In this document: one piece after another, positions 3,573 through 44,123 of the stretch | Position numbering within the stretch: the stretch's first letter is position 1 | How the letters are laid out: the number at the start of each line of letters is the position of its first letter | Virus record (IMG/VR): IMGVR_UViG_3300009158_000045 | Coordinates: 1 to 64,000 of that record | Length of the DNA stretch: 64,000 nucleotides | Origin: a virus | Strand: one strand, 5' to 3' | Position numbers and translations under genes: made by a program | Notes under the pieces: generated by a model | Told to the model about the DNA's origin: nothing | The model's database searches: none | Seen by the model: only the letters and a program-made list of their open reading frames with translations

Positions 3573-3592
3573 TTGAGAAATAGGAGAATAAT

Positions 3593-5753: not shown

Positions 5754-5754
5754 A

Positions 5755-6420: not shown

Positions 6421-6435
6421 TCTAGAAATACTTTA

Positions 6436-8567: not shown

Positions 8568-8575
8568 GAGCTAAA

Positions 8576-21502: not shown

Positions 21503-21835
21503 ATGGCATCTACAGTATACGACGTAGAAGAAATTAAGTTACAAAATGGCGCAATAGTTAAGCTAAAGCCTTTAACAATTAAAGAGCTTCGAAAGTTTAT
21601 GGCAGCTATCCAGAAGACATCTGAAGTTACTACAGAAGATGAGACACTATCAATTCTTATTGATGCATGTGCAGTTGCATTAGAAAAGCAGCTACCAGAA
21701 TTAGTAGCAGACAGAGATGCATTCGAAGATGTTTTGGATGTTCCAACAATCAATCGCATTCTTGAAGTTTGCGGCGGAATTAAGATGGACGACCCAAACC
21801 TTCTAGCGGCTCAAGTTCTAGCTGGTCAGAACTAG
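21503..21835 (+). CDS. tail assembly chaperone (G-like)
   Basis: Lies between tail tube and tape measure. VKLKPLTIKELRKF motif, slippery heptamer near the 3' end. Confidence 0.85.
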   Translation: MASTVYDVEEIKLQNGAIVKLKPLTIKELRKFMAAIQKTSEVTTEDETLSILIDACAVALEKQLPELVADRDAFEDVLDVPTINRILEVCGGIKMDDPNLLAAQVLAGQN

Positions 21836-22164
21836 ATCTAGCCGCTTTAGAAGGAGATATTTTTCTTTTAGGACACTGGAAGAATTATGAAGAACTAGAA
21901 GAAAATCTCTCAATGCCAGAGTTAATACAAACGTTAAAGTCTATGACAAAGACGGAAGAAGATAAAAGAATTTTCTTAGCAGCTATACAAGGTATAGAGT
22001 TAGGAAAAGATAAAGAAGAAACAGAAGGCCCAACCTTCGATGACGTAAGACTAAAAGCACTTGGAATAGAAGCTAGCAAAGATGACATTGTTTCGCTACA
22101 GGGTCAAATTGCAGCAGAAAGTGGTTTTGGAATCGGAGCAGGATTAGGGTACTCGAAGGAGTAG
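21793..22164 (+). CDS. tail assembly chaperone -1 frameshift extension (GT-like)
   Basis: C CCA AAC (X XXY YYZ) at 21793-21799. The -1 frame is open from 21784 through WSELDLAALEGDIFLLGHWKNYEELEENLSMPEL... to the stop at 22164. Confidence 0.75.
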   Translation, partial: PKPSSGSSSSWSELDLAALEGDIFLLGHWKNYEELEENLSMPELIQTLKSMTKTEEDKRIFLAAIQGIELGKDKEETEGPTFDDVRLKALGIEASKDDIVSLQGQIAAESGFGIGAGLGYSKE

Positions 22165-22167
22165 TAA

Positions 22168-25100
22168 ATGTCGGCACCGCAGTTTATTAATACTAACATA
22201 GTAGCTACTGCCAACTTCTCTTCTTTAACATCTCAGCTATCAGCAGTAACCTCCCAGTTACTAAAACTTCAGCAAACAGTTATAGGCACAAACAAGATAT
22301 TCCAAAATCAAGTTTCTGTAATGAACCGTGCATTTGCAGAAAACATGAGAAGCACTGGACAATTTGCCACACACTTTGTCACCTTGTCCTCAGATGTAGA
22401 AAATTTTGGAAGAAATTTAGATTCTGGAAAATTAAAACTAAGTAGATATTTTAAAACTTGGCAAGACCATACAAAAACTTCTGGTGGCTTGATAAGACAG
22501 TTAGCCCAGCAGCAGGTAACATTACAAAATGCAGTCATACAGCCCTTGGGTAAAAATGCCCAAGGGTTAATGCAATATAACGTGCATGTTGCACAGGGCC
22601 TAGATACCATAGCAAACAAAACAGCGCTTGCTGCAATGCAAGCAAAAATATTAAATAAGGTAATGCAAGATGGTGCAAACCAGTTAATTAACTGGGGTAA
22701 AAATACACAGTGGGCTGGTAGACAGCTAACAGTTGGTTTGACACTGCCTCTTGCAATGTTTGGCCAGGCAGCATCAAAAGCATTCTTAGAAGCAGATAAA
22801 GAATTAGTTAGACTTACAAAAGTTTATGGTGGACTTGCTGCTACAAGCGCATCCGATCTAAAAAAGATAAGAAATGAAGTTTCAGCAACTGCAAAAGAAT
22901 TAGCAGCCCAGTATGGAGCATCTTATACTGCAACAATTGGACTGGCTGCCGATATAGCTGCGACTGGAAAACAAGGCCAAGACCTCTTAGATTCAACAGT
23001 TCAAACAACAAGACTTGCAATTCTTGGTGAGGTTGAGCATGCAGAAGCAATGAAAGCAACCCTTGCAATTCAAAGTACATTTAAGCAAAGTACAGATGAA
23101 CTTACGCAATCAATTGATTTTTTAAACGCAGTAGAAAACCAAACATCTACAACACTAAATGATTTAGTTATTGCAATACCTAAAGCTGGTCCTGTAATTC
23201 AAGCAATGGGAGGCAGCGTAAAAGATCTTTCATTATTATTAGTTGCAATGAAAGAAGGAGGAATTAATGCTTCGGAAGGAGCTAATGCTCTTAAGTCTGC
23301 ACTTGCTTCATTAATTAACCCAACAAAAGTTGCAAAAGCGATGTTTGCAGATTTTGGAATTGACCTTACCGAGATAGTAGAAAAAAATGCTGGTAACTTA
23401 ACTGGCACAATAATGGCCCTACAGTCTGCTTTAGACAAACTTAATCCATTACAAAAACAACAGGCAATTGAACAGCTTTTTGGCAAATTCCAATTTTCAA
23501 GATTGAATGCCTTATTTGCAAATCTTGGAAAGCAGGGGTCTCAAACACTTCAGGTGCTAGATTTAATGAATGCATCTGCAGGGGATTTAGCAAATCTATC
23601 TTCTAGAGAATTAGCACAAATAACTGAATCTGCATCTGGAAAATTTAGAAGAGCCCTAGAATCAGTTAAAGCAGATATGGCACAAATTGGAAATTCTTTC
23701 CTTTCAATTGGCACAACAATATTAAATATTATTAGCGGAATTGTTAAATTTTTTGGCAAACTGCCAGACCCATTAAAAAAAGCATTGACTTTCTTGGGAG
23801 GAATAACAGCAGTTGCTGGTCCTCTTATCATGTTGACTGGTGTGCTTGCTAACTTTTTTGGATATATAGTAAAAGGTTTATTCCATTTTAAAGCTTTATT
23901 TAAAGGCGGAGAAGGATGGAAGTACCTTACACCAGAAATTTTGGCTGCAGAAAAAGCTGGATCTTTAATTGAAAAAACATTTTATAGCGATGCAAAAGCT
24001 GCTGCCACACTAGAAGTATCACTCCATGGTTTAGCCGCAGCATACAAAGATTTAGAGGGCAAGATACTAGCAGCAAATATTGCCGCACAACCAACAATAA
24101 GCACAATAGCTGGCTCTCCAATATTGCAGGGTTCAACAAGAGTTGCAGATCCGTCACACCCATTAATAGGACAGCCTTATTCAAGGTCAATGGCACACTT
24201 AAATCCTGTTTCAAAAATGACAGAGGTAGAAAGATTATCTCAAACTATATTTTCAACAGTTCCAAATCCAGCACCAGTAAATAGAAAAGTTGGCGCAAAC
24301 CCACAGATGTATATGACTGGAGATATGCCATTAATTCCTGGACTAACTTCAGTAAACGGTGCTTCAACTGGAATCATTGCATCAGAAGCAGCTAAGTGGC
24401 ATTCAATGACTGCTGCGCTTGCAATGCAGTCTGAGCAAGAGCTTGTTCTTTTAAAACGAGAAGTTGCTGCAACTGGAGGAATTACAACATCTCTCTCTGG
24501 ATCGTATCAAAAACTATTACCAGAAATGACAAAGCTAACAACGCATGCTGCACAAGAAGGAGCAAAGATAGTAGCAGCACTTGAAGCTGGGGCATTGACC
24601 GTAGCTCAAGCGCAAGCAGAAATTGTAGCTCTTAATGCAAGAATTGAAGCTATGATGGTGCAGACCGCATCTCAAATTGCAGCAATTGAAAGTAGATCAA
24701 TTAATTTAACATCAGTACCTCTTTTAAGCCAGCCAATTATTGATCCAATTACAGGCAAGTCAAACATGAAAGAAGTATTCCGACCAGGAAGAACTGCATC
24801 AACTATAGATGCTATTGCTGATGCGCTTGGAGTTAGAACATCTGGCGGAGGATATTCTATTGCAACAACTAAACCAAAATTCCTTCCAATTGTAAAAAGA
24901 AATACTGGCGGAGAAATATTTACAGCAGAAGGTGGAGCTTTTGTTCCAGGAGTTGGAAACACCGACACCGTGCCAGCCATGCTCACACCAGGAGAATTTG
25001 TTGTCAATAAAAAACAAACTCAAAAAGACCCACAAGGGCTTAGAGATTACAATGCTGGCAGAGCAGTAATCGTTCCAGTACAAAAATTTTTAACTGGCGG

Positions 25101-28100
25101 CGAGGTTTTAGAGGGCGCACATTTTAGCGGAAATGTAAAATTAACTGGAGAGCAAATTAAAAATGCTCCAAGACTATTTGATGCTTTGCCTCCACACATG
25201 CAAGCAAGCGTTTTGCAGTTTCCTGGACAAACATTTTTAATTCAAGATAGTCAAATACTTACATTGCCAAGAATTTTAAATAAAAAATTAAGATTAGCAA
25301 GTCGTGCAAATTTATCAAAAGAGCAGGCTTTGGGACACATAAGAGGCGTACCAGCAGCAACAATGTTTTCTGGATGGAATCTTGATGAAAGATTAAAAGA
25401 AAGATTAAAAGCAGAGCTTCTTACACAAATATCTCTATCTACACCAGCGGACCCAGCTGCAGGTTACAGAGATCCAGATATGGAAAGAATATTTAAGACT
25501 ACAAAAGAAAGACTTCTAAACGATACATCCTTGGACTATGAGGATATTAAAAAATTTGCATTCTCTTTTAGAGAAGCAGAGCAAAAAACAAAGGTTGTCT
25601 TAACAACACTTAAAGATGTAGAGGCTTCTGCAAAAATATTTGCTTCTGCAAAAAAGCTTGAAAAATTAAAAACAGAATTAGGCATAGACATTCCTAAGCC
25701 AGATGAAGTTACAAGATTTTCTACCTCAAAAAATGCTGATGTGACTAAAAGTGTTGGTTGGTTTGATGCTAATGCTAAAAGAATAGCAGAAAGATACTTT
25801 GCAAGGTATCCCGATAAAAAAGATATTAGTATCCCAAATAGCCAGGGCAAAAGAAATATCTGGGTTAACAGCGGTAATGGAGTAGCTACAGTACATGAAG
25901 GAGGAGCGACTACAGCTAAATTAAGAGAAGCTGTTGTTTTGGTTATAGATGAACTTACTGGAAGAGTAAGAGTAGGTAAATTAAATCCAATATTCGCCCC
26001 AAGAGATCCAAAAGCAGCCACAATGACTAGAAGATGGATTGCTGGAAGAGCAACTGGAGGGCCAGTAAATAAAAATACTCCTTACATTGTAGGAGAAAAG
26101 GGACCAGAGTTATTTATTCCAAGACATGATGGCGGAATAATTCCAAATAATAAATTAAATTCAGGAGGCCCAGTTGCTGGCGTAAGGTATTACGGTACTG
26201 GGTCTGGCGACGGGCCAGTAACAGCAGATACATTTGGTTCTGTTGCACAGGCCAAGAAAGCCCTTAGAAGCGGCAACCCAGCCGTCAGAGCAGCAGCTCA
26301 AACATGGTTACTTGCACAGTCCGCAAAAGGCTCCCAGGTAGCCGTAGGAGGCACACCAGGGGTATTCCAAGGAGAGCAGTCACCTGGAACAAGAGGCTCA
26401 TATACAAGAGGCAGAGGATTTACTGATTATCAAATTAGAGGTTCACAAGTATCTGGTATTCATGCTATGCCAACTTATAGACCAATTTATGACAATAATC
26501 CATTTAGGGGATGGCAGCCAGGAGTAGGAACAATGGCAGCAGCATCTTCATTAAAATTAGCTTCTTCTGATGCTTATGCTCGTGCAGGTGCCAGGTTAAC
26601 AGTATTACAATTAGCTGCTTTAAATAAATTATTAGAAGTGCAGACATCTGCAAAAAATGCTTTACAAACTACTGGTATTGTAATAAAAGAATTAAGGGGA
26701 ACAACAACAGCAAAACTCTCCGATGCATATGCAAGATCAACATATAGACCAACAAGCTGGAGAGAATTAAGCCCATTTAATCCCACTGGATATAACGCAA
26801 GAAGAGTTCCAGGACAACCATTTGGAGCATCACTTGGAAATCATCCATTTGCAGTTTCAATGGCAGCTTCCGCTGGAGGAATGTACGCAGCTTCAAAAAT
26901 TAAAAACCCAGCAATAGCTGGCATTGTATCTACAATGGCTGGCGTTCTTCCATTTATGTTGCCACAAATGCTAATGCAAAAAAAGGCTGCAAAAGCAGCC
27001 ATGTTAAATGATGAAGCTAGGTTGTTGGCAGAAAGAAATGGAACTACAATTGCTCAAGAAAGACAGGCACTTGTTGCAAAACAACAAGCAGAAAAAGCTG
27101 CTGCACAAGCAGCAAGAACTTCTGCATTGGCTTCAAAAACTGGCATGGGTTCAAAAATAGCAGCAGGTGCTGAAAAGGGTATGCTTGCTTTAATGCTAGC
27201 ACAAGGAGCAAAAGTATCTGGAATATTTGCAAGAATTGGTCCAATGATTTTTAGAATAGCATCAATTTTAAAAAGCCTTAGTATACCTGGACTTATTATA
27301 ACAGCCCTAATTATGATAGGAAAATATTTTTGGGATGCACATAAAGCAGCACAAGCAGCAATACAAGCTCAATCTGATTCATTTAAATTAAATGCAAAAC
27401 AAGCAAAGCAGGCTGGAATAGCTTATGTAGACTTTAAGAAAAAAGTAGAAGATGTAAGAGAACAACAGCGCTTAATGATGGAAGCTGGAAGAATTGCACT
27501 GCAGTCAAATAAAAATTCTAGTATAGGTGGACTAGTATTTAGCTATCAGGAATTAAAGAAGGCAACTAAAGACGCTAAAAAGAACATGCCAGATGTTGTA
27601 AAGATGTTTGATGATTTAAACTTTGACCAAGTTGCAGATGCCGCCGCTAATCTAAAAGTACAATTTGTTTCTCAAGGAATGTCTGCCGAGAAAGCGGCAA
27701 TAAAAATATATGGAATTGTTGCAGCCTCTAACAAAGCTGGACAAGCAGCGGATGCAATTTCAACAAAAGCGTTTATGGCCATACAGGACAAGTCTACAGC
27801 AGCAACAGCTTCCGTTCAAGGTTTAGCAAAAGCAATAAAATCTGATCTGGACGCAAAAATAATTGTTTCATCATTTGAAGCTATGGTAAGTGCAGTAGAT
27901 GCTTCGACCAAAGCTTTGATTGGAACAAAAGATGAAACTGGTAAAGTAATAACAGAAGCTGAAGCACTTGAGGCTACTTTTAAGCAAATACATTCTACAC
28001 AACAAGGAAACGTGCAGTTAGGCGAAGATGGGCTAAAGGCTCTTCAAGATCAAAACCCATTATTAATTGGAATATTAAATAAGAACGATACTATTGCTGG

Positions 28101-31100
28101 TACCTACGCTAAAATGAGACTTGTACTTCAAGGCATAGGCGGAGACTTAAGTGCAGTAAATAGTAAAACTGCACAAGCAATGCTTCTTGTAAAAGAAGGA
28201 ATTGATAGTGCAGCCTTAGCAATGGCCACGGGAACCGATGAACAGGGAATACAAGTTCAATCTGGTAACTTGACAGCGCTAGTCACTCTAGTAAATCATT
28301 ATAAAAAAGCTTCATTGGACGCAGCCTTGGCATCCACCTCAGCAGCAAAGAAAGCAGCTGATGGAAATAAAGCAGAAATTAAATCAATTCAAGAAAAAAT
28401 TGCTGCAATTAACGATGAGGCTGATGCAAGAAAGAGAGCTCTAGAACAACAGACAGCAACAGAAGATGCAAAAATACAATTAAAGAAATTGCAGTTGGAC
28501 TATCAAGATGCAATCGCTACTGGAAATACAAAAGATGCAGCGCAAATACAACTTTCAATTAGACAGCTTGTTCTTCAGACTAATAAAACTCAAGCGCTAG
28601 CGGCTATAGAAGAAAAAAGAAATGCGGACTTAAAAATACAGAATGCTCTTCTAGCAAAAGCACAAGAAAAAGCAAATGCAGCACAACTTAAAGCAACAAA
28701 CCAATCCACTGCAGCACAAAATGCAGCAAATACATTATCAACGATACAATCAATTCAATCAACAATTGCAAGCTTGATTAGCCAAAGAGCAACAGCAGAC
28801 CCAACGACAGAAGCTGGCAAACTAGTAATAGCTGGCCTGGATTCGCAATTTAAAAAACAACTTGCAGAACTAACAAAATATGGAACCCTTGGTAAAAATG
28901 CAGCAAACGCTCTTTCTCCAGGTGGAATATATAATGCAAAACTTCCATCAACTGATTACAGCTCATCGTTAGCAAAGCTTAGCGCAGACGCATTAAAAAC
29001 CGCCTCCAGTAAATTTGTAGGAGGAGTAGACAAATTTGCATTGTATGTTGATAAGTTAAGCGGAACATCTGGTTTAGCTTATTCTGACCCAACAGAAACA
29101 ACACCATTAAAATTTGCTGGCGTCAAAATAGGAGATGCTGTGTATATGCGCTTCTCTTCAGGCGATGGAAAGAAAAACATTCAGGTAGCAACCGAGAAGA
29201 ATTTCACAGATGATGCTTATAATGCATATATCAAAAATGGATGGAAGTTCATTGAGTACGCTACAGAAAAAAATAGTTCCCCAGAGCATGTGTATCATCA
29301 AATTCTAGGCCGCAAGGTTCCAAAAGCTGCAACTGGTGGTCAAATTCTTCATTATGAACCAGGCGGAACAGTACGGGGACCTGGAACAGCAACATCTGAT
29401 TCTATTCCCGCACTGCTTTCAAATGGAGAGTATGTAATAAGAGCCTCCTCAGTTAAAAAATATGGAACAGAAACATTTGAGGCACTTAATGCTGGAAGAT
29501 TTGCAGATGGCGGTTTAGCTCAAGATCCTAATAAAGTTTATCTTCCAGATGGTACTGAAGCTCGTAGGATGTCACGTGAAGAGCGTGATGCCAATTATAG
29601 AGCAAGCCGTGAAAGATTCCTTGCACAACGTAAAGCCTATAAAGAATTTGTTATGCCGCAAGAAACTCATAAAGAATATCTAAATAGAATGAAGCAAATG
29701 GGTTATCTAATGGGTGGAGCAATTCCAGGATTTCACAAGGGCGGAAAAGCTCATAAGCATCCAAAACTAACTCCATTATCAGATCTAGGAGAAACAACTA
29801 AGTCTCAAATAAAATATTTGGAAGACTGGACTACATTATTAAATACATACTATGGTGCAAAGTATAAAGATCTTCTTAGTTTACCTGAAGGACAAAACAT
29901 TGTATCTAAATTATCTTACTCTAAAATTTTAGATGGATCAATAAAAAGATCGGATCCCGCATCATGGGCTCAAGATTCTGAACACATCAATGCATTTTGG
30001 GATAGCTCTAATAGAAGAATTACAATGGGGCTTGCAAATTCTTTAAATCCAATTTTGAATCCAAACCCACTTTATATACCAGGAACATTAGATGATCTGC
30101 ATGCAACAAAATCAACAGCTTCTAAAAATCAATCTCCAATAAACTTTTTAGAAGGCATTGCAAAAAATGTTAAAAATAATCCATATTCAAGAATGGAAGT
30201 TTTAAATACATTATTCCATGAATTTGGCCATGCACTGCAGTCCAGTATAAGATCACAACAAACTTATTCTCAAATGTTAATGGGTATTAATGACCCTAAA
30301 GGTATTAACAATATTGAAACGTCGGCAGATCTTATGTCTGGTGGAATATTTAAAGAAATGTACCAGAATGGATATATTCCTCAAGTTACAGATTCAATTT
30401 TACAAAATATATTTTCAAGCAAAATTCTTACTGGAACCGCAACACAGCTACCAGCATTTGAAAAAGATGGGTGGCACCCAACAAATGAAAACTTTAGATT
30501 TGCTACATGGGCAAAAGGATTCCAAGTTGGGGACACAGCAGCACTTGACGATTCTCTTGTAACTAAAAAACAAAAACTTACTAGTGGAGAGACTGAATTT
30601 AAGCCAATTAAATTTGCTGATATTGCTAATTTAGAAGCAGCAAAAGCCGCAATAACTGCAGCTATGGTTCCAAGCGGATTTCATAGAGGTGGACAAGTTG
30701 GGCATCAGCATACAGGAGAAGCAGCAAAACCACAACTTAAATATTTCCCATGGCGCCCAGACCTACCAAACTACTGGAGTAATGGAAAGCCAACAGGAAG
30801 TCCTTGGACTGGAAGATGGGGCGAGCTAAGATATAGTCCTTCAAAGGGTAAAGACATCTGGGGCGGTACAGAAATACCAGGACTCAAGTTCAGCGGTAAA
30901 TTTGCACAGCACTCAGACTACTGGCATCAAATGACTGAACAGCCAAGTAAATCAAGTGGTTCAGGAATGGGTATAGATAAATACACTCCTCCATTAGTTG
31001 GCTCTGGTGCATCTGCATGGTCTGGTGGCCTACTTGGCGGCGGCGGCGGAAACATGATTGGTTTCCACAAAGGCGGGCCAGTTGGTCATAGGCATGGAAG

Positions 31101-33237
31101 AAACTTACCTGGGTCTCTATTTAGATGGAATCCATATCCTAAAGACATGCCAGATTACTGGAGTGATGGAAGCCCATCAGGCAGCCCTTACACTCAAAGA
31201 TGGGGAGCGCTAAGATACGGTCCTGCCAAGGGTAAAGACATCTGGGGCGGAACAGAGATACCAGGTCTTCCATTTAGTGGAAAGATACCTAATCGCTCAG
31301 ATTACTGGCATCAGATACTAGAGCAGCCAAATAAATCATCTGGACCAGGAATGGCCGTCGATAAGTCTACACCTCCATTAGTTGGTTCTGGAGCATCTGC
31401 ATGGTCTGGTGGCCTACTTGGCGGCGGTGGTGGAAACATGTTCCATAAAGGCGGGCTAGCAGAAGCTGGTCATAAACATGGAATAGCAGGTCTATGGGAT
31501 AAGTTTAAAAATCAAGCAAACAAGTCCTTAACTGGTGCAGCCGCAGCTGATACTTTAAATCAAGCAGGGTATCTGGGACAACTAGCACTAAGTAGTGTAG
31601 CAAAGAATATAGTTCCTAAACCAAGTAAAGAGCAGGACAAATCTTTTCAAGAGTTTACACAAATACCTTCAATATACAGAGCCCTTACTGGAAAAACTGA
31701 TGAGGGCCCACTAGGTCAAATAAGTCCAAAAGCTGGCGCAGTTGCTGACTGGGCTGGGCTACTTACATTTTTTACACCTTACCGCTCATCTGGACGTGCA
31801 GCCACACATGCCGCAGGATCGGCTGCAGCATCTGCAGCATTACCAACAGTCCCGCTATCACCAATGGAAATGTTTAGAGGACAGTTTCCAACCCTTGATC
31901 CAAGCATGTTGCCAAAAGGCACTCTCAGCACAGGAACAAAAATAAAGCCTTGGGAACTGCAAACATACAAAAAAATACTTGCAAGACATTATTTAGCAAA
32001 ACAACCAGACCCACGAACATTGACTCAACACGAAGTTGCAGTTCTAGCAGATATGAAGGTTCCTGGCTTTGAAGACTTAAGAGTACACACCGAACACACT
32101 GCAGACTACATTGCTGATGACTTAAGGTTAAAAAGCACATTTGATTACAAATCTCCTTTGACCAAATCAGTATCTACAGTTGAGGAGCTTTTAAGTAAAT
32201 CTTTATTCCACGGAGGAAACCTACCAACAGTAGATGGAAAAATTGATTTAAAAAATAGAACTGGATTAAATAGCTGGTATGGCGGGCAGATGTTTGCAGC
32301 AGAAGATTACAGGCAGGCATTAGCCTATCTTTTAAAGTCCCCAGACAACTCAGTATACTCTATTACATCTGCATTGAAAAAAGAAGATGTCATAGACCTT
32401 AGACATAATGCAAACACATTAGCTTCACAGCAACCGTTTGTATTTGCAAAATTATTAAGAGATATAGAGTCGGGCAAAATTACACTTCAAGACCATCAGT
32501 CAAAAGATTTTGTTTACTCAACTTTGCTAGCCCAAGAGGGAGGAAGATACCCTCATGCTGCTGCTCCTGGAGCACTCAGAGATAAGATTTTCCAACTATA
32601 CTTTAAAAACATTTCCCCATGGCTAGCAGAAAATGGAATAAAAGCAATTGTTCACAGAAATGGAACAAGGGTTGCTATACCAGAGATAGGAACATCAGTA
32701 GCAGACAACCCAACTAGAGTACAAGATTTTGGCCAGACTGGTACCGATGCAATAGCCTACACCACGGTAGACGGCTCAATTGGACAGATACAAAAACATA
32801 CCATAACTAGTCAGCAGGTCAAAGATATTGTTGCAAGAATACAAGCATCGAATCCAGATGTTAAATCTTCTAGGCTTGAATCAGAAATCATGGCATTGCT
32901 CAGACAGTCTACAGAAATTCCTCGCAAGGCAATGGGTGGACTAGTGGTTCCACAGGCTAAGGATTGGTCAAATAAAGCTAAATTTGCTACTGGCGGTATG
33001 GTAAATAAAGCTAAATATAATTTGCCTTCACCATCTGTATCTATTAATAAATCAATGATGCCTAATTCAAATAATAGCGCAGTTCATCATTATGATGTTG
33101 GTGGGCTTGTTGTTAACGCTCAGCCTGGACAAGATGAAAAAACTATTGCTACAATGGTAGTTAACATGTTAGATCAAAAGAATATGATGAGAGAAGCTAT
33201 GTATGGAAGACAAAGATCTATGAGCGGAGGTAATTAA
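22168..33237 (+). CDS. tape measure protein (TP901-like core) with C-terminal cargo domains, 3689 aa
   Basis: Follows the chaperones. Ala-rich helical N-terminus (EGANALKSALASL), hydrophobic segments, and GPGTATSDSIPALLSNGEYV / IVGEKGPELFIP motifs. Contains an HEFGH peptidase and an ART-like module. Confidence 0.93.
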   Translation: MSAPQFINTNIVATANFSSLTSQLSAVTSQLLKLQQTVIGTNKIFQNQVSVMNRAFAENMRSTGQFATHFVTLSSDVENFGRNLDSGKLKLSRYFKTWQDHTKTSGGLIRQLAQQQVTLQNAVIQPLGKNAQGLMQYNVHVAQGLDTIANKTALAAMQAKILNKVMQDGANQLINWGKNTQWAGRQLTVGLTLPLAMFGQAASKAFLEADKELVRLTKVYGGLAATSASDLKKIRNEVSATAKELAAQYGASYTATIGLAADIAATGKQGQDLLDSTVQTTRLAILGEVEHAEAMKATLAIQSTFKQSTDELTQSIDFLNAVENQTSTTLNDLVIAIPKAGPVIQAMGGSVKDLSLLLVAMKEGGINASEGANALKSALASLINPTKVAKAMFADFGIDLTEIVEKNAGNLTGTIMALQSALDKLNPLQKQQAIEQLFGKFQFSRLNALFANLGKQGSQTLQVLDLMNASAGDLANLSSRELAQITESASGKFRRALESVKADMAQIGNSFLSIGTTILNIISGIVKFFGKLPDPLKKALTFLGGITAVAGPLIMLTGVLANFFGYIVKGLFHFKALFKGGEGWKYLTPEILAAEKAGSLIEKTFYSDAKAAATLEVSLHGLAAAYKDLEGKILAANIAAQPTISTIAGSPILQGSTRVADPSHPLIGQPYSRSMAHLNPVSKMTEVERLSQTIFSTVPNPAPVNRKVGANPQMYMTGDMPLIPGLTSVNGASTGIIASEAAKWHSMTAALAMQSEQELVLLKREVAATGGITTSLSGSYQKLLPEMTKLTTHAAQEGAKIVAALEAGALTVAQAQAEIVALNARIEAMMVQTASQIAAIESRSINLTSVPLLSQPIIDPITGKSNMKEVFRPGRTASTIDAIADALGVRTSGGGYSIATTKPKFLPIVKRNTGGEIFTAEGGAFVPGVGNTDTVPAMLTPGEFVVNKKQTQKDPQGLRDYNAGRAVIVPVQKFLTGGEVLEGAHFSGNVKLTGEQIKNAPRLFDALPPHMQASVLQFPGQTFLIQDSQILTLPRILNKKLRLASRANLSKEQALGHIRGVPAATMFSGWNLDERLKERLKAELLTQISLSTPADPAAGYRDPDMERIFKTTKERLLNDTSLDYEDIKKFAFSFREAEQKTKVVLTTLKDVEASAKIFASAKKLEKLKTELGIDIPKPDEVTRFSTSKNADVTKSVGWFDANAKRIAERYFARYPDKKDISIPNSQGKRNIWVNSGNGVATVHEGGATTAKLREAVVLVIDELTGRVRVGKLNPIFAPRDPKAATMTRRWIAGRATGGPVNKNTPYIVGEKGPELFIPRHDGGIIPNNKLNSGGPVAGVRYYGTGSGDGPVTADTFGSVAQAKKALRSGNPAVRAAAQTWLLAQSAKGSQVAVGGTPGVFQGEQSPGTRGSYTRGRGFTDYQIRGSQVSGIHAMPTYRPIYDNNPFRGWQPGVGTMAAASSLKLASSDAYARAGARLTVLQLAALNKLLEVQTSAKNALQTTGIVIKELRGTTTAKLSDAYARSTYRPTSWRELSPFNPTGYNARRVPGQPFGASLGNHPFAVSMAASAGGMYAASKIKNPAIAGIVSTMAGVLPFMLPQMLMQKKAAKAAMLNDEARLLAERNGTTIAQERQALVAKQQAEKAAAQAARTSALASKTGMGSKIAAGAEKGMLALMLAQGAKVSGIFARIGPMIFRIASILKSLSIPGLIITALIMIGKYFWDAHKAAQAAIQAQSDSFKLNAKQAKQAGIAYVDFKKKVEDVREQQRLMMEAGRIALQSNKNSSIGGLVFSYQELKKATKDAKKNMPDVVKMFDDLNFDQVADAAANLKVQFVSQGMSAEKAAIKIYGIVAASNKAGQAADAISTKAFMAIQDKSTAATASVQGLAKAIKSDLDAKIIVSSFEAMVSAVDASTKALIGTKDETGKVITEAEALEATFKQIHSTQQGNVQLGEDGLKALQDQNPLLIGILNKNDTIAGTYAKMRLVLQGIGGDLSAVNSKTAQAMLLVKEGIDSAALAMATGTDEQGIQVQSGNLTALVTLVNHYKKASLDAALASTSAAKKAADGNKAEIKSIQEKIAAINDEADARKRALEQQTATEDAKIQLKKLQLDYQDAIATGNTKDAAQIQLSIRQLVLQTNKTQALAAIEEKRNADLKIQNALLAKAQEKANAAQLKATNQSTAAQNAANTLSTIQSIQSTIASLISQRATADPTTEAGKLVIAGLDSQFKKQLAELTKYGTLGKNAANALSPGGIYNAKLPSTDYSSSLAKLSADALKTASSKFVGGVDKFALYVDKLSGTSGLAYSDPTETTPLKFAGVKIGDAVYMRFSSGDGKKNIQVATEKNFTDDAYNAYIKNGWKFIEYATEKNSSPEHVYHQILGRKVPKAATGGQILHYEPGGTVRGPGTATSDSIPALLSNGEYVIRASSVKKYGTETFEALNAGRFADGGLAQDPNKVYLPDGTEARRMSREERDANYRASRERFLAQRKAYKEFVMPQETHKEYLNRMKQMGYLMGGAIPGFHKGGKAHKHPKLTPLSDLGETTKSQIKYLEDWTTLLNTYYGAKYKDLLSLPEGQNIVSKLSYSKILDGSIKRSDPASWAQDSEHINAFWDSSNRRITMGLANSLNPILNPNPLYIPGTLDDLHATKSTASKNQSPINFLEGIAKNVKNNPYSRMEVLNTLFHEFGHALQSSIRSQQTYSQMLMGINDPKGINNIETSADLMSGGIFKEMYQNGYIPQVTDSILQNIFSSKILTGTATQLPAFEKDGWHPTNENFRFATWAKGFQVGDTAALDDSLVTKKQKLTSGETEFKPIKFADIANLEAAKAAITAAMVPSGFHRGGQVGHQHTGEAAKPQLKYFPWRPDLPNYWSNGKPTGSPWTGRWGELRYSPSKGKDIWGGTEIPGLKFSGKFAQHSDYWHQMTEQPSKSSGSGMGIDKYTPPLVGSGASAWSGGLLGGGGGNMIGFHKGGPVGHRHGRNLPGSLFRWNPYPKDMPDYWSDGSPSGSPYTQRWGALRYGPAKGKDIWGGTEIPGLPFSGKIPNRSDYWHQILEQPNKSSGPGMAVDKSTPPLVGSGASAWSGGLLGGGGGNMFHKGGLAEAGHKHGIAGLWDKFKNQANKSLTGAAAADTLNQAGYLGQLALSSVAKNIVPKPSKEQDKSFQEFTQIPSIYRALTGKTDEGPLGQISPKAGAVADWAGLLTFFTPYRSSGRAATHAAGSAAASAALPTVPLSPMEMFRGQFPTLDPSMLPKGTLSTGTKIKPWELQTYKKILARHYLAKQPDPRTLTQHEVAVLADMKVPGFEDLRVHTEHTADYIADDLRLKSTFDYKSPLTKSVSTVEELLSKSLFHGGNLPTVDGKIDLKNRTGLNSWYGGQMFAAEDYRQALAYLLKSPDNSVYSITSALKKEDVIDLRHNANTLASQQPFVFAKLLRDIESGKITLQDHQSKDFVYSTLLAQEGGRYPHAAAPGALRDKIFQLYFKNISPWLAENGIKAIVHRNGTRVAIPEIGTSVADNPTRVQDFGQTGTDAIAYTTVDGSIGQIQKHTITSQQVKDIVARIQASNPDVKSSRLESEIMALLRQSTEIPRKAMGGLVVPQAKDWSNKAKFATGGMVNKAKYNLPSPSVSINKSMMPNSNNSAVHHYDVGGLVVNAQPGQDEKTIATMVVNMLDQKNMMREAMYGRQRSMSGGN
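30676..31440 (+). repeat. tandem duplication (~380 bp x2) inside tape measure
   Basis: Copies at 30676-31056 and 31060-31440 share KGKDIWGGTEIPGL, SDYWHQ and TPPLVGSGASAWSGGLLGGGGGNM. Confidence 0.9.
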
Positions 33238-33239
33238 TA

Positions 33240-33713
33240 ATGGCTAGAAATACTATGCCCAGAGGTTCAGCCTTGCAAATATATGCAACTGATTGGACAA
33301 TAAATGGTGGAGACAATACTGTAAAATATAATAAAGTCACAGAGCATAATAGATCAGATATTGCCATACAGACTACAAGATATGAGAAATCTATGCGAAT
33401 GGCGGATGGAAGCCTAAGAAAATTTTTTATTAAAGATAAAAGAGTTTTTTCTGTTTCCTGGGACATGCTACCAGCCTATAGAACATTAACGGTAGATAAT
33501 TGCTGGGGCGCTGAAGATCTTAGATATTTTTATAATTCAATAGAAGGACAAAAAGAATTTTTAATTAAAATTAATTTAGCAAAAGACGGAACAAATCAAG
33601 AAAACACTGGATTTGAATTATTTAATGTTGTTATATCGAGCCTGTCATTTACGCTATTAAAAAGAGGTCTTCAGCCATTTTGGAATGTATCCTTAACAAT
33701 GGAAGAAGTCTAA
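33240..33713 (+). CDS. distal tail-like protein
   Basis: Directly after TMP. RMADGSLRKF...FSVSWDMLP...WNVSLTMEEV. Confidence 0.65.
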   Translation: MARNTMPRGSALQIYATDWTINGGDNTVKYNKVTEHNRSDIAIQTTRYEKSMRMADGSLRKFFIKDKRVFSVSWDMLPAYRTLTVDNCWGAEDLRYFYNSIEGQKEFLIKINLAKDGTNQENTGFELFNVVISSLSFTLLKRGLQPFWNVSLTMEEV

Positions 33714-36700
33714 TGCTAGTAACAACACCTGCCTCTAATGATACAGTAGTTAAAGATTTATTTATAAAAGATAATGTTATTAAGACTGCGGCTGGTTGCT
33801 ATATAGAATACAACATGAATTTGATGACTAACTTAAAGGATTCAAGCATCACTGGTCCAGCATACACATCACCCACTTATGTTAAATTTAAAAAGTTATT
33901 CCCAATAGACAGCATGATAAAGCCATTTAGACCAATAACATCTGGCATTAAGTATGCAATTCTAGGAGACCTACCAGCAAAAAGTTGGGGAAGCCCAAAA
34001 AATAATACTACCCCATTAAATTATAGAATTTATATACCTGGCAAAGATACATCATATCAGTATTGGATTAGCGAAAAGGGTCAGGGTACTGGCTTGACAC
34101 CACTTTCAATTACATATCCAAAAAAAATACTTGTAAATAAAATAGTTGTTAAATTTGAAGTATCGCATGACAAACCAGCAACATGGACTGTTTCTGCAAA
34201 ATTAAATAGCGGAGCTTTAGAAACAATTAAAACAGGAACTTCATCCGACATACCAGGTTTTGTTGCTGGCTCTTATAATGCTGGAGTAATAAACTTATAC
34301 TACACTGGAACATCATGGTCATTAAATGAAAGTGATTTAAATCCAAATGCATACAAAGAGTATACAAATATACAGCTTGCGTTTACAGCGGCAGCTAATT
34401 CGGGATATGTTGCAGTAACAGAATTTTCACCAAGATGGGTAAAAGACATATCCTCATCTGTTGTGGATTTTAGCTTTACAAAAGAAGCTTCTTCTGGGTC
34501 AGAAGATGTTTTGCCTGTTGGATATGTAAGCGCAAATTCATTTACTTTAAATTTAAATAATTATAATACTTCTACCCCACAAATTATTAATTATTCAAAA
34601 GACGATGCTTTTGTTTTTGATGCTTCAAAAATATATATCTATAAACAAGTTGAGATGAAACCATTTTTTAAAATATACCATTCTGCTGGTACGTACGGAA
34701 CTGCAGATGCAACTTTTAAATCTTTAGACAAATATGACATTTTGTCTCAAGGAACTTATTTTGTTGATAATTGGACAATGTCTGAGTTTAATGATGTAAA
34801 CGTTGTGTGTTTAGACGCAGCAAAAATACTTCAAGAAACTATAGCTCCTCCAATACTTTGCGACAATTACTCGGTTATTGCGATACTCAGAACCTTATTG
34901 GATTCAATTGGATTTACATCATACAAGTTTAATTTAACAGACAGCGATCAATCAATTATAACCCCAGATTTCTGGTGGAGCGATGAAACAAAAACAGTTT
35001 GGTCTGTAATTCAAGAACTATGTAGAGACGTACAAATGACAGCAGTGGTAGATGAAAATAATATTTTACAATTTTATACAAGAGAATATATGTATACAAG
35101 TAACAATAAATCTGTTGCTTGGAATTTTACACAATCACAAAAAACAATTGGATCGAAGGTATACAGGCCAAATATAATTGATTTAAATAAAAAACTATTG
35201 CCCGTAGCAAATCAAGTAAAAATAACTTGGCAAGCTGTCGCAACCTCAAACTACGACAAGTCGGCGGCACCTCTATGGAGATCGAATACCTCAGTGCTAT
35301 CAGCATCCGCATTAATATTAGATTTAAATGCAACAGATAAATCTTTGTATAACGTAGATACTGGAGAAGTCGTTGCTGGGTCTCAAAAATATATTTGGCT
35401 AAATCCAATATCAAGTTCATTTGAACAGATGACTACTTTAAACTCTTATAACGGATACTTAGTTGTCGACAATGAAATTATAGAATATGATGCAATACAA
35501 TACATTTATACCCCATTGGCAGGAGGTGCTCAGCAATCTGTTGACATAATGAGCGAGTCTGATATAAAAAGATACAGGTCCTTGGCTGGACCTAACAGCC
35601 TAGATTTTCAAAGCAGTAAGGCGTACAGAATAAAAACAAGAGGAGCCTTCAATACAACACCAGCAGCCCACTCAGCGTCAGATTCTCAGGTTGCCTCATG
35701 GACAGCAAAGTCTACAGACTTTAAAACTGCAACCGCCATTAAGGCAGGAACATCAGCAAAGAAAGATAAGTTTACAAACAATAAGTCTTTATATGTTCTA
35801 AGCAAAGATCCAAACGATAAGGATATAAAAAAATATTCTATTGCATATAAAAAATTTGCTGAGCTTGATACTACAAGCACATACTATGCATTTGGAACAA
35901 CATTATTTTTTGATAGTAATATTGATACTGGAAATGCTTCTGGTGGGTTTATGTTTTTTGCAGATGATACAGGGCTTAATGGATATTATATTAATATAGA
36001 TACAACTTCTAATGCCGCTGCATATGGATCAAAAGAATTTAAAATTAGAAAAATACAAAATGGAGTCATACAGACACTACCAGACAGCCAGTCGGCTTCA
36101 AGCTCTTCTTTAAATGGAGTTTATGATTTAGAGTCTTATAAGATTGATGTATTTGTTAAATATACTCCCCCGCAGTACCCAGCGTCATTATCAAAGCCTG
36201 CAACGGTTGAAATAAAGGCATATATAAATGGATTTCAAATATCGGCAGTAGATAAGTATCTTTTGTCTACTAATGGCAAATCACCAGACAACCTCATACC
36301 AGCACCAAATAAAACAGTAACCTTAGTTTGCAATACTGGAACTATTAATTTTGATTATATATATGGTATACCGATTGCAAAAGATTACTACGATCAGTCA
36401 AAACTATTTTCTGTATATAATGGACAATTCTCTGACCTCATAACAAAATCATTATTGTCAGAAGCAATAACGGGATCAGTCAATCTGCAGACAGAAATCC
36501 CTAGAGGCGGCTTCCTAGAAGAATTTGGAACGGTTGCAAGAGAACTTAGATATATAAACACTAAATACTCTTCGCCCCCACAAGCAGCATATCCTTTATA
36601 CGCATCGACTTCTATTAATCAGCTAGCAAATGTTATTTATAGTAAATTAAGTACATTTGGAGCAGAGGTGTATGTTTTAAATAACTCTGGTACTTCCATT

Positions 36701-37081
36701 CCATTAGACGATGGTGCGTCTACATCTTTCTATGTGTTAGGCAAAACAATTAATCAGACTGGTTCTTCAGAATATACTAATCATGAATTGAGCAAATATG
36801 CTGTGCAGGAACCAGTATCATTTGCATCCTCATGGATACAAAAAGAATCCGATGCCATTGCCCTAGCTAGCTGGATAGAGTCTATTTGGTCAAAGAAACA
36901 AGAAGTTGTAAATTTAACAGTTTTTGGAAACCCGTTTCTTTCTATTGCAGACATAATAGCAATAGATTACGAATATAATGGTCTATCATACAATACTCAA
37001 AAATTTGTAATAACTAGCATTTCACACACATATTCTATGGGATTGGAGACGACCATTAGCTGCCGAACCCTGGTTAGCTAA
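33713..37081 (+). CDS. tail tip/baseplate hub protein (~1120 aa)
   Basis: ATG 33713 via TAATG coupling. C-terminus VFGNPFLSIADIIAIDY...FVITSISH is typical of hub/Tal proteins. Confidence 0.7.
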   Translation: MLVTTPASNDTVVKDLFIKDNVIKTAAGCYIEYNMNLMTNLKDSSITGPAYTSPTYVKFKKLFPIDSMIKPFRPITSGIKYAILGDLPAKSWGSPKNNTTPLNYRIYIPGKDTSYQYWISEKGQGTGLTPLSITYPKKILVNKIVVKFEVSHDKPATWTVSAKLNSGALETIKTGTSSDIPGFVAGSYNAGVINLYYTGTSWSLNESDLNPNAYKEYTNIQLAFTAAANSGYVAVTEFSPRWVKDISSSVVDFSFTKEASSGSEDVLPVGYVSANSFTLNLNNYNTSTPQIINYSKDDAFVFDASKIYIYKQVEMKPFFKIYHSAGTYGTADATFKSLDKYDILSQGTYFVDNWTMSEFNDVNVVCLDAAKILQETIAPPILCDNYSVIAILRTLLDSIGFTSYKFNLTDSDQSIITPDFWWSDETKTVWSVIQELCRDVQMTAVVDENNILQFYTREYMYTSNNKSVAWNFTQSQKTIGSKVYRPNIIDLNKKLLPVANQVKITWQAVATSNYDKSAAPLWRSNTSVLSASALILDLNATDKSLYNVDTGEVVAGSQKYIWLNPISSSFEQMTTLNSYNGYLVVDNEIIEYDAIQYIYTPLAGGAQQSVDIMSESDIKRYRSLAGPNSLDFQSSKAYRIKTRGAFNTTPAAHSASDSQVASWTAKSTDFKTATAIKAGTSAKKDKFTNNKSLYVLSKDPNDKDIKKYSIAYKKFAELDTTSTYYAFGTTLFFDSNIDTGNASGGFMFFADDTGLNGYYINIDTTSNAAAYGSKEFKIRKIQNGVIQTLPDSQSASSSSLNGVYDLESYKIDVFVKYTPPQYPASLSKPATVEIKAYINGFQISAVDKYLLSTNGKSPDNLIPAPNKTVTLVCNTGTINFDYIYGIPIAKDYYDQSKLFSVYNGQFSDLITKSLLSEAITGSVNLQTEIPRGGFLEEFGTVARELRYINTKYSSPPQAAYPLYASTSINQLANVIYSKLSTFGAEVYVLNNSGTSIPLDDGASTSFYVLGKTINQTGSSEYTNHELSKYAVQEPVSFASSWIQKESDAIALASWIESIWSKKQEVVNLTVFGNPFLSIADIIAIDYEYNGLSYNTQKFVITSISHTYSMGLETTISCRTLVS

Positions 37082-43600: not shown

Positions 43601-44123
43601 TGTTAACTATACTATTACATATAATGCTAATGGAGGTGCTGGTACAACATCGCCTACAACTGGTAATGGTTCTGTAACTTTAAGAGCAAATTCATTTACA
43701 AGAACTAACGCCACATTTGTTTATTGGAGCACTTCGTCAACTGATACTGGAACATCGTATTCTGCTGGAGCACCCTACCCTTTGACTGGAGATGTTATAC
43801 TTTATGCAATCTGGACAGCGAATGCAAACTCCGCAACAGCACCAACCGTTACGTTTGTTGGCAATTCTGGAAATACAAAAAGCTGGTCATGGACTGCGTC
43901 CACAGTAACTGGTGGAACTTTAGTTGGATATGATTATTCGGTTAGCTCGACAAGCGGAACATCTGGATTTGGATCCTTTACATCCGTTGCATCAACCCCA
44001 AGAACTCTCTCACTCACAGTCACAAATGCTGCATCAAATCCAAGGTGGCTAAAAGTCAGAGCAAGATATACGGATGGAATAGGAACAGTTAAAACTGGAC
44101 CAACTAATGCTACTGGAGTATAG
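40635..44123 (+). CDS. tail fibre/adhesin with Ig-like domains and four InlB-B (Listeria-Bacteroides) repeats
   Basis: GTG start. Ig-like 'GSWT...YARQWKR...ISGATSATYT' domains. Four YxxxFxxNG...FxGW...LYAxW repeats in the C-terminal part. Confidence 0.75.
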   Translation: MSIYKKSGAWNQIKRIYYKSGSVWTEINNVYYKASAAWTKVFSKNNAPGNTSKPQITGSSYLFGTLSGSLGSWTAPSGTNSYARQWKRATDNNGVPGTYSSISGATSATYTTVSADDNKWISIFITATSSGTGQSSTVAADAVFVNKYAPVNTNANSKPIITGVTEVFNTLTASSTWKTLTDIAGDTTPDTYTYVWKWGDTGALATNNNNSSSYTIATADKGHTIKVEITATNSGGSTTVISDPTAVITGALPKATINTVIVSRDPNSYVFTITNNGTWTNSPTSYRYQWYVETTVAIYGSSWSIINGATSSSFDASSYKTQNVIPIVWASNSNGESTSGYAKLAYGGTGVFPGGNAPQDSSKVLYKLPTITTFTVTGGVRAFYYISNFSADDPSASARMTWSGASTNPFDQLYPTSSAVQQIYTPMGTAGLHNFTLTVTNTGAGAIAGSATSSVNNVNITVPADYSFAFGKDLYVSTNGYVGLLDSPSTNLQQQFAEYSLPRLGRLIAPYLRDLRQGLTTDTTGYGYLKYWSDASSFVVYSTSYNLGGENMSATAIDYQMKFYTNQSYVDINYIRVGASMPAPSTGPGLYLDGAYQRFGVAPYSGYNGFRIYLDGSLGSVGQYFTSIPSAAFLIAGGVTYGTNDDGYTRIVASANQYAKPLVYFRTQSFPPYQQDIIPGATTYSVGITTGGNDMASYQYVLKKTSDNSLKASGTETLSKYLAFTALTPLTQYTLTVTPYNSLSQAGDDIVYSFTTQGIYTVTFNSNGATGSPSSASVTQASVGASVTLATVGTMTKSNSIFAGWSANGNTPTLSNTYTPLETITLYAVWLPLYAFTFSANGATGSPNISSARQTSSGGAVTLATIGTMAYTGKKFLGWSTSSTATTATYTSGSSQTPTSDTALYAVWVNLTLYKVNLFSNGGSASDTSLTQTTEGGSVTLPFQAGTNGTLAFGGWNTNSSGTGTNYAASASYTPTANVSLYAKWTAPAVNYTITYNANGGAGTTSPTTGNGSVTLRANSFTRTNATFVYWSTSSTDTGTSYSAGAPYPLTGDVILYAIWTANANSATAPTVTFVGNSGNTKSWSWTASTVTGGTLVGYDYSVSSTSGTSGFGSFTSVASTPRTLSLTVTNAASNPRWLKVRARYTDGIGTVKTGPTNATGV

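Follow-up and report, generated by a model that had tools for sequence, protein, structure and literature searches.

Repeated xxGG motifs mark the joints between cassettes in a long phage tail tape measure protein

Results

The tape measure gene and its family

We analysed a stretch of viral DNA of 64,000 nucleotides (nt), hereafter the window, which represents positions 1 to 64,000 of IMG/VR record IMGVR_UViG_3300009158_000045 (73,120 bases, estimated 68% complete). Our interest centred on one gene of the window, encoding a phage tail tape measure protein (TMP) of 3689 amino acids (aa) that carries many short motifs ending in two glycines (xxGG). The protein is a mosaic whose joints lie at these motifs, and it is close to certain that modules have been gained, lost and duplicated there. 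An initial interpretation of the letters (the sequence-only reading) had proposed a TMP, starting at 24895, with cargo cassettes delimited by about 14 such motifs. Matches to Pfam, TIGR01760 and PHROG, together with the gene order, agree on the TMP identity: PhageMin_Tail (PF10145) matches aa 240-439 (E 2e-26, 93.5 bits, cut-off 33.2), TIGR01760 matches at 93.2 bits (cut-off 28.8), and nine PHROG TMP families match aa ~13-839 with E <=1e-22. The proposed start needs correction, as the open reading frame (ORF) begins at 22168.

At least 596 IMG/VR stretches encode relatives of the N-terminal 840 aa of the TMP, and the best 80 of these (61-69% identical) were retrieved. Complete ORFs were present in 62 of the 80. 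Sixty of them are 2042-3834 aa long, with a mode near 2100-2150 aa; the two shorter ones (1616 aa in L031 and 1179 aa in L043), which end though their contigs continue, may be split or truncated tape measure genes. Residues 1-950 of the window protein are covered by 57-62 of the 62 complete relatives and aa 1726-2150 by 57-61, followed by aa 2376-2450 (27-30 relatives) and aa 2851-3100 (5-7), and none of the 62 covers aa 1051-1275, 2476-2825 or 3126-3575. This pattern indicates a chassis shared by the family, to which the window protein adds extra material at two places. The parts of the gene are as follows.

22168..33237, +, TMP gene (P0001), a single open frame of 3689 aa
22168..24882, +, chassis part 1 (aa 1-905), the N-terminal core; hydrophobic segments at aa 511-573; covered by 62/62 complete relatives
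24883..25101, +, junction J1 (aa 906-978), first hook-type unit, RNTGG..TAEGG..NTDTVPAMLTPGEFV..FLTGG; phrog_35029 at aa 923-953
25102..26037, +, cassette C1 (aa 979-1290); absent from 62/62 complete relatives from about aa 1050
26038..26202, +, junction J2 (aa 1291-1345), RATGGPV..PYIVGEKGPELFIP..RHDGG..LNSGGPV; matches phrog_30701 and phrog_1538
26203..26847, +, segment C2 (aa 1346-1560), variable and Gly/Arg-rich; in just 3-9 of 62 relatives
26848..29307, +, chassis part 2 (aa 1561-2380), hydrophobic at aa 1581-1600 and 1683-1723, then rich in helix formers; collinear in relatives at 25-34% identity
29308..29514, +, junction J3, distal hook unit (aa 2381-2449), AATGG..YEPGG..GPGTATSDSIPALLSNGEYV..RFADGG; matches phage TMPs by tblastn
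29515..29730, +, linker unit L (aa 2450-2521), ending YLMGG..; with the adjoining motif, exactly absent from L088
29731..30678, +, cassette C3 (aa 2522-2837), FHKGGKAHKH and then a zincin-like peptidase, HEFGH at aa 2684-2688 (nt 30217-30231)
30679..31062, +, cassette C4a (aa 2838-2965), starting FHRGGQVGHQH; the most widespread cassette
31063..31440, +, cassette C4b (aa 2966-3091), second copy of C4a, starting FHKGGPVGHRH
31441..32055, +, cassette C5 (aa 3092-3296), FHKGG and then a conserved 'adaptor' (profile aa 3095-3229)
32056..32925, +, cassette C6 (aa 3297-3586), ART-fold-like domain (ART, ADP-ribosyltransferase); model confidence 65-86 in parts
32926..33234, +, chassis part 3, C-terminal module (aa 3587-3689), KAMGG..FATGG..YDVGG and then an amphipathic end; a pile-up of homology starts

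Hydrophobic peaks on the Kyte-Doolittle scale fall at aa 511-573, 1581-1600 and 1683-1723, and the fraction of helix formers is 0.51-0.59 over aa 1561-2380, a figure that describes composition and not structure. A megablast search of the TMP gene against 50,697 phage records gave no match. TMPs of Streptomyces phages share 33% identity with its N-terminal 670 aa. In a tblastn search of phage records with the C-terminal 1312 aa only the hook unit matched, and the cargo was found in no isolated phage among those records. When the last 1160 aa were compared with 1.84 billion representatives, 72 matches were obtained, nearly all of them partial and to differing parts of the query.

The xxGG motifs

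All 14 motifs listed in the sequence-only reading lie in the frame of this one ORF, no more than 4 nt from where that reading had placed them. Each is given below with its first base and, in brackets, the position noted earlier.

24898, +, RNTGG, in the TMP frame (24900)
25087, +, FLTGG, in the TMP frame (25090)
26047, +, RATGG at aa 1294, in the TMP frame (26050)
26155, +, LNSGG, in the TMP frame (26155)
29326, +, AATGG, in the TMP frame (29330)
29353, +, YEPGG, in the TMP frame (29355)
29500, +, FADGG at aa 2445-2449, in the TMP frame (29500)
29704, +, YLMGG, in the TMP frame (range 29705-29745)
29731, +, FHKGG, in the TMP frame (range 29705-29745)
30679, +, FHRGG at aa 2838, in the TMP frame (30680)
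31063, +, FHKGG at aa 2966, in the TMP frame (31065)
31441, +, FHKGG at aa 3092, in the TMP frame (31441)
32926, +, KAMGG at aa 3587, in the TMP frame (32925)
32983, +, FATGG at aa 3606, in the TMP frame (32985)

Further similar motifs are TAEGG (aa 919), RHDGG (aa 1319) and YDVGG (aa 3642). The expression [FKRY]xxGG, under which the motifs had been grouped, does not describe all of them, as LNSGG and AATGG of the same list do not fit it. The excess over chance was evaluated with 2000 residue shuffles of the TMP. The protein contains 18 [FKRY]xxGG motifs against 4.7±2.1 expected (shuffle maximum 12), 50 GG pairs against 28±5 expected, and six F[AH]xGG motifs against 0.13 expected; each of these counts was reached in 0 of the 2000 shuffles.

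Across the family the junction consensus reads P-G-F-A-x-G-G-[MPKL]-V-G. We compared 120 junction contexts with 2256 other GG contexts. F occupied -3 in 40% of the former and 9% of the latter, A occupied -2 in 40% and 17%, and V or I stood two residues past GG in 59% and 36%; Pro immediately followed GG in 15% of the junction contexts. The codons of the motif copies are unlike one another, indicating that the motif is conserved at the protein level. Because the codons differ, long DNA homology does not explain the joints, and DNA microhomology was likewise ruled out as their general cause; the two FHKGG copies flanking C4b are an exception and share ~10 identical bases.

Several relatives (L038, L004, L055, L064 and L017, at ~aa 1200-1330) carry arrays of two to five junction-type motifs, e.g. 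..GGMVPGYARGGMVGG.., immediately before a Gly/Met-rich hydrophobic region. A further function of the junction motif at the membrane-inserting part is possible.

Homology breaks and insertions at the motifs

The internal ends of high-scoring segment pairs (HSPs) in 150 subjects were counted against the 14 listed motifs. Of 267 internal HSP starts, 59 fell inside a motif (random expectation 1.9%) and 87 within 3 aa of one (random expectation 4.1%), and 93 of 336 internal HSP ends also came within 3 aa. The breaks accumulate at particular joints. Forty subjects end their homology at aa 2445-2453 (FADGG). At J2, 33 subjects start at aa 1289-1296 (RATGG) and 23 end at aa 1326-1346. Ten subjects start at aa 2836-2843 (FHRGG) and nine at aa 2962-2970 (FHKGG 2966), 27 end at aa 3092-3111 (FHKGG 3092), and 26 start at aa 3577-3608 (KAMGG and FATGG). 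At J1, homology ends at aa 911-920 (n=9), 950-969 (n=31), 970-990 (n=28) and 991-1010 (n=10).

Individual alignments illustrate how these breaks arise. In three subjects (P0006, P0007 and P0008) FADGG and FHRGG of the window both align to a single motif, and aa 2450-2837, the linker and the peptidase, therefore represent a motif-bounded insertion. In four others (P0019, P0024, P0028 and P0034) module C5 follows the hook directly, and in four more (P0051, P0069, P0072 and P0073) the C-terminal module does so. Two indels distinguish the relative L088, which is 87% identical in this region, and the limits of both coincide exactly with consecutive xxGG motifs. At the first, a single LHKGG of L088 stands for FADGG, 72 aa and FHKGG of the window, and the same arrangement is seen in P0002. 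At the second, L088 has one C4 copy where the window has two, the difference extending from FHKGG to FHKGG; P0002 likewise has a single copy. The same module is thus found beside varied neighbours: C4 after the hook, LysM, the peptidase or itself, C5 after the hook or C4, and the C-terminal module after the hook or cargo.

A family-wide test compared 151 sequences all-against-all and gave 325 insertion events, which formed 140 clusters; 300 random placements served as the null. In 79% of the clusters the left end had a GG no more than ±12 aa away, in 66% the right end did, and in 51% both did; the null gave 22%, 23% and 5%, respectively (maximum for both ends 10.7%). Removal of repeats of the same insert left 43 events, most of them with F-A/S-x-G-G on both sides. 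Among the seven insertions with both flanks at least 65% identical, five run from motif to motif.

The breakpoint pile-ups, the L088 indels and the GG enrichment at both insertion ends bear out the proposal that cassette boundaries coincide with the motifs in aligned relatives. The relatives compared are not uniformly collinear, and cassettes have been exchanged at the motifs.

The hook units

We refer to two units of the TMP as hooks, the first at aa 906-978 (J1) and the distal one at aa 2381-2449 (J3). The distal hook follows the pattern GG..GPGT.TSDSIPA.LS.GE.V..(F)AxGG over ~70 aa. The Gly-rich unit of J2 (aa 1291-1345, ..PYIVGEKGPELF..) is unlike either. AATGG, YEPGG and FADGG, which had been counted as separate delimiters, are instead parts of the one distal hook, a unit that TMPs of widely differing phages have conserved.

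The distal hook gave tblastn matches in 646 phage records. For each of the 30 listed matches the gene at that place carries a TMP annotation, or, where the record is a RefSeq copy of one of these phages, an endolysin annotation. The hook-type motif is kept in Mycobacterium, Pseudomonas, Burkholderia and Stenotrophomonas phages. Among PDB sequences it matches Douge gp16 (8zdo_S, E 6.6e-19, two copies) and JBD30 gp46 (8rk3_A, E 1.8e-7); in both structures the hook is unresolved, only the last 33-42 residues being modelled, seated in the baseplate. According to the available text of the JBD30 report, gp46 residues 1022-1066, which match the window's hook, are predicted by analogy with T5 to act as an anchor after the C-terminus has been expelled (PMC11445458). 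Prediction of the hook unit as a homotrimer (three copies) scored 0.01, which speaks neither for nor against such an assembly. Among the 62 complete relatives, 14 have the hook 95-107 aa from the C-terminus, which we take as the base state, and in 11 others over 460 aa of cargo come after it.

In the shortest relatives the C-terminal module comes directly after the hook. It matches at the subjects' own C-termini, where the last ~100 aa are conserved, and it probably plugs the tail tip. A PDB sequence search with the last 113 aa of the TMP gave no match.

The cargo modules

Most of the cargo, ~1140 aa in five or six modules, lies between the distal hook and the C-terminal ~100 aa. Pfam searches with eight separate segments, in which E values up to 5 were accepted, returned only sub-threshold HExxH matches. 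No Pfam family was detected for C1, C2 or C4 in these searches, nor any relevant family for C5 or C6 in 12 homologs. C1 is partly common to P0024 (to aa 1068) and P0051 (to aa 1151). Single-sequence IMG/VR scans recovered close relatives only, at five loci for C6 and one locus for the peptidase. ESM Atlas searches gave best scores of 0.86 for the peptidase and 0.84 for C4a, which serve as leads only. Of nine relatives, two carried CHAP and LysM domains as cargo and one carried LysM only; in the other six the cargo was not recognisable.

The sequence-only reading had placed unrelated globular segments between the motifs, including a peptidase, a duplicated module and an ART-like domain. The segments are extra and mutually unrelated, as described; an independent fold was not obtained for the peptidase or the duplicated module. 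An AF2 model of aa 2522-2970 (21 aligned rows) reached a mean predicted local distance difference test score (pLDDT) of 40 and was not used for fold searches. The peptidase call finds support in the letters of C3, which carries HEFGH and, ~32 aa downstream, ETSAD, both conserved in L088 and P0017 (42% identity). Its best Pfam matches, below the cut-off, are Peptidase_M3 (17.2 bits, cut-off 27) and DUF4344 (16.3 bits, cut-off 29.6). Among the 72 representatives and the IMG/VR scan, this peptidase occurs in just P0002, L088/L083 and P0017.

The duplication of C4 is real, bases 31143-31384 (C4b) being 77% identical to 30759-31000 (C4a) over 242 nt. Since C4 lacks a confident model (pLDDT ~40, 21 aligned rows), it is possibly not globular. 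Dozens of the 72 representatives match it, at varying positions, and it occurs also in L021, L025, L029 and L063, in the latter two after a LysM domain. G378, G379, H399 and E403 (numbering of alignment A2) are invariant, and many W, G, P, D and Y positions are nearly so.

The C5 profile (aa 3095-3229) was found in 11 proteins, in 10 of which an xxGG-type motif precedes it. Downstream of this adaptor there are at least five unrelated domain groups among 10 proteins, one group with another HExxH. C5 accordingly shows the layout of a constant adaptor with variable tips, an organisation resembling that of polymorphic toxins. An AF2 model of aa 3092-3586 reached a mean pLDDT of 55.9, with C5 as low-confidence helices and only the C6 half usable.

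Fold comparison of C6 suggests, weakly, an ADP-ribosyltransferase-like fold. More than 20 of the 50 rows listed by VIA-align are ART-fold proteins at Z 3.6-5.4, among them diphtheria-toxin homologs (Z 5.4 and 5.2) and ParT, MbcT, NatT, PARPs and cholix toxin (Z 4-5). The best match is 9k3a_B residues 1419-1611 (Z 7.0, Foldseek E 5.9e-3), and PARPs have a Foldseek E of ~1. The ART-like domain of the sequence-only reading is thus kept as a weakly supported assignment based on fold, its matches being consistent but low (Z 4-7). A His in FHGG and an aromatic residue in WYGGxxFA are conserved in the aligned homologs; no catalytic Glu of an H-Y-E or R-S-E triad was picked out among them by an alignment made without superposition.

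The best structural match of C6 lies in the large ejection protein of the cyanopodophage A4 pre-ejectosome (9k3a_B). A term search of the available text of the A4 pre-ejectosome paper did not find domain 1419-1611 named. C6 and the A4 domain may be an injected-effector domain common to tail-borne and head-borne proteins.

Neighbouring genes and other features of the window

Upstream of the TMP gene lie genes for a portal, a protease, a capsid protein, a connector, an Ig-domain tail protein and the following chaperone pair.

21503..22164, +, tail assembly chaperone pair G / GT, directly upstream of the TMP gene

The G ORF occupies 21503..21835 and is overlapped by an open -1 frame at 21784..22164. 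Within the G ORF, at 21793-21799, a C CCA AAC heptamer stands in the zero-frame register, and this arrangement suggests frameshifting. Minor tail genes follow the TMP gene, among them one for a minor tail protein (phrog_10359) at 33680..37081. No match to a sheath family was found in the 18 neighbouring proteins scanned, and the virus is therefore probably an uncultured siphovirus.

Relatives of the TMP N-terminus also occur on 57-78 kb contigs in bins of bacterial metagenome-assembled genomes (L089, 62%, and L090, 44%, both Bacteroidia; L091, 38%, Aquiluna). A scan of genome contigs recovered matches in such bins only, including besides these a 539-bp Rhodobacteraceae contig. L089, L090 and L091 are probably phage contigs inside the bins, and the host hints they give conflict.

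Two further features were noted. At 5133-11211 (+), just upstream of the head genes and in an unusual place, ten adjacent ORFs encode proteins of 206-241 aa; the first two match 2OG-Fe(II) oxygenase (PF13640) and the next two DUF6065 (E ~5e-29), and the other six, of similar length, may be further paralogs. At 40635-44123 a 1162-aa tail-region protein carries four Listeria-Bacteroides repeat domains (Flg_new, E 3e-32), possibly a hint at the host envelope.

Discussion

A proposed chassis loaded at protein-level joints

We propose that the window protein is a chassis TMP into which cassettes have been inserted at protein-level junction motifs, with the cargo leaving the tail first, and assign this reading as a whole a probability of roughly 0.68. 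The chassis of ~2100 aa has four parts: the N-terminal core, a membrane and coiled-coil part, the hook unit and the C-terminal module of ~100 aa. Extra modules have entered it at two permissive sites: one separates the first hook from the second hydrophobic region, and the main one lies past the distal hook (FADGG), ahead of the C-terminal module. Every module brings or adjoins a motif of the form (P)-G-F-A-x-G-G-[MPKL]-V, and modules are gained, lost, duplicated or swapped from motif to motif. That recombinants joined there keep the frame and restore the joint would explain why the surviving events have these limits. The motif itself may form a tight Gly-Gly turn between two short hydrophobic strands, like the beginning and the end of the hook. 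A turn of this kind would tolerate any neighbour and so let unrelated modules be strung together inside the tail tube. Solved siphophage tails have the TMP C-terminus at the tip, so the cargo is expected to exit the virion ahead of the DNA. The position of the modules in the protein predicts delivery into the host in the order, from the tip, of the ART-like domain, the adaptor, the two C4 copies and the peptidase.

Several observations weigh against this interpretation. HSP ends favour drops in conservation, and the motifs are conserved islands in Gly-rich linkers, so that a conservation drop alone could explain part of the endpoint enrichment. The subjects are related to one another and the counts are not independent events; deduplication left the 43 given above. 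The joint after the first hook is fuzzy, its homology ends being spread over aa 911-1010, and two of the seven insertions with well-conserved flanks are not clearly motif-to-motif. All fold matches of C6 fall below Z 8, in a range where a common arrangement of elements is possible, and none of the window's cargo segments matches a Pfam model above its cut-off, either among the separate segments (E up to 5) or in the 12 homologs. The hairpin is without structural support, as the motif-bearing ends of the aa 3092-3586 model have pLDDT <50 and the aa 2522-2970 model failed. The phage, finally, is uncultured and known here from sequence alone.

Alternative explanations

The alternative that survives best treats the protein as a polyprotein, in which the xxGG motifs are proteolytic sites cut during assembly or after ejection, by the HEFGH peptidase or a host enzyme, so that the modules are freed. 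A short repeated motif at every module joint does resemble polyprotein sites. Gly-Gly cleavage sites are known for the papain-like proteases of adenovirus and coronavirus. The window carries a HEFGH peptidase motif with a conserved downstream Glu, and zincin peptidases have been argued, in the available text of Iyer et al. 2017 (PMC5512222), to release the other domains of polyvalent proteins. The available part of another report describes T5 pb2 and lambda gpH as cut near the C-terminus in tail morphogenesis, the T5 cut separating the enzymatic domain (PMC10038345). The T5 site, however, follows Arg rather than Gly-Gly in that same text (PMC10038345). Within the family, moreover, the peptidase cassette is rare (P0002, L088/L083, P0017) whereas the motifs are present in all members examined, and no protease is common to the family. 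Pro after GG in 15% of the junctions and the strongly kept V or I two residues on would be unusual for a scissile site. Relatives also carry the motifs in tandem arrays of two to five before a Gly-rich hydrophobic region, and motifs occur inside the chassis itself (J1 and J2), where a cut would sever the ruler. We therefore regard cleavage at the motifs as rather unlikely.

A bolder version of the chassis interpretation would make the F-A-x-G-G joints both a splice rule and ejection cut sites. C5 and C6 would then act like polymorphic-toxin tips, carrying an NAD-using enzyme and other effectors across the membrane into the cell ahead of the DNA and disarming the host before phage gene expression. 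This programmable injection chassis seems to us doubtful.

The motif might instead be a docking peptide whose partner, which coats or registers the tape measure during assembly, is either the G/GT chaperone or the tail tube's inner wall; each cassette would then be tolerated only with a copy of its own. A canonical G/GT pair lies directly upstream of the TMP gene, the motif is multi-copy and present at every joint, and it is conserved at the protein and not the DNA level. In lambda, chaperones bind along the tape measure protein. The hook-type motif, however, is kept in phages with unrelated chaperones and tube proteins, which favours a self-structure or host-side role, and docking is in our view very improbable. 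That there is no system at all, just a long mosaic TMP with ordinary Gly-rich linkers and boundaries that coincide through alignment artefact, is scarcely credible: domain linkers are often Gly-rich, local alignments do stop where conservation drops and two cargo segments gave no fold, but the junctions have specific flanks (F at -3 in 40% vs 9%, A at -2 in 40% vs 17%), F[AH]xGG occurs six times against 0.13 expected, the indels in the 87%-identical L088 have motifs as their exact limits, a single subject motif pairs with two of the window, and GG stands at both insertion ends in 51% vs 5%.

Significance and comparison with known systems

Natural phages have shuffled many modules by the grammar described here, most of them without an assigned function. 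If the cargo is delivered as its position suggests, it would constitute a second route, beside head-packaged polyvalent proteins, for bringing ready-made proteins into the cell. The modules would then form a rich catalogue of candidate early effectors, and the joints a natural design rule for loading a chosen protein into a siphophage tail. The literature searched, mostly without subscription journals and supplements, did not yield any account of a phage TMP with motif-delimited cassettes, ART cargo or zincin cargo.

The nearest counterparts among tape measure proteins are T5 pb2 and lambda gpH. The available part of the report on these proteins describes hydrophobic segments, an enzymatic domain (in T5 a metallopeptidase) and a C-terminus in the tip, with the enzyme leaving first (PMC10038345). 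In T5 pb2 the cut falls between the hydrophobic stretch and the C-terminal metallopeptidase, and the last 35 residues are in the tip, according to the same text (PMC10038345). T5 differs in having one small cargo, compared with the ~1140 aa in five or six modules of the window, and in being cut after R1127 instead of at Gly-Gly; no motif-delimited exchange of modules is described in that part of the report (PMC10038345). Mycobacteriophage TMPs, e.g. that of TM4, are similar in that peptidoglycan-hydrolase motifs are embedded in them, as stated in the available text of PMC1796659, and relatives of the window protein carry CHAP and LysM, or LysM, in the same slot. The window cargo, in contrast, contains no recognisable wall hydrolase, and in its slot several modules are lined up together with an adaptor whose downstream domains vary. 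JBD30 gp46 and Douge gp16 share the GPGT.TSDSIPA.LS.GE.V hook unit (window aa 2381-2449), although no cargo is inserted after their hook.

Polyvalent proteins may resemble the window protein in their content. The available text on them describes a zincin peptidase, an ART-type domain and other modules in a giant polypeptide, for which co-injection with DNA and separation by the peptidase are proposed (PMC5512222). The TMP may likewise combine domains of polyvalent type in one ORF, the candidates being the HEFGH peptidase motif and the ART-fold-like domain, the latter from weak matches (Z < 8); its other modules have no assigned activity. Polyvalent proteins differ in being head-packaged or transferred by conjugation, and tape measures are not mentioned in that text (PMC5512222). 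Models of polyvalent domains (ART-PolyVal, LPD families, MuF association) gave no Pfam match in the whole TMP, in the separate segments (E up to 5) or in the 12 homologs; an Atlas score of 0.80 to an LPD23 cluster is a lead only. Sle1-type effectors are also TMP-related and modular, with an exchangeable, species-variable C-terminal functional domain, in the available text of a 2026 report (PMC13277306). They are, however, cargo of an actinobacterial contractile injection system and not a phage ruler, they have one functional domain, and no junction motif is mentioned in that text (PMC13277306).

Polymorphic toxins offer a parallel in organisation, with a constant delivery part, a short demarcation motif and variable toxin domains swapped by recombination, and C5 with its at least five unrelated downstream domains fits this scheme. 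The demarcation motif is VENN in CdiA and PxxxxDPxGL in Rhs proteins. The window protein differs in its delivery machine and in its motifs, which are unrelated to those, and in that no immunity gene is expected or seen; its cassettes, moreover, stand in series, each with its own motif. That TMPs are ejected, some of them with a wall-degrading enzyme, was already known, and what the present analysis adds is a grammar comprising a fixed chassis, two slots and a motif at every joint.

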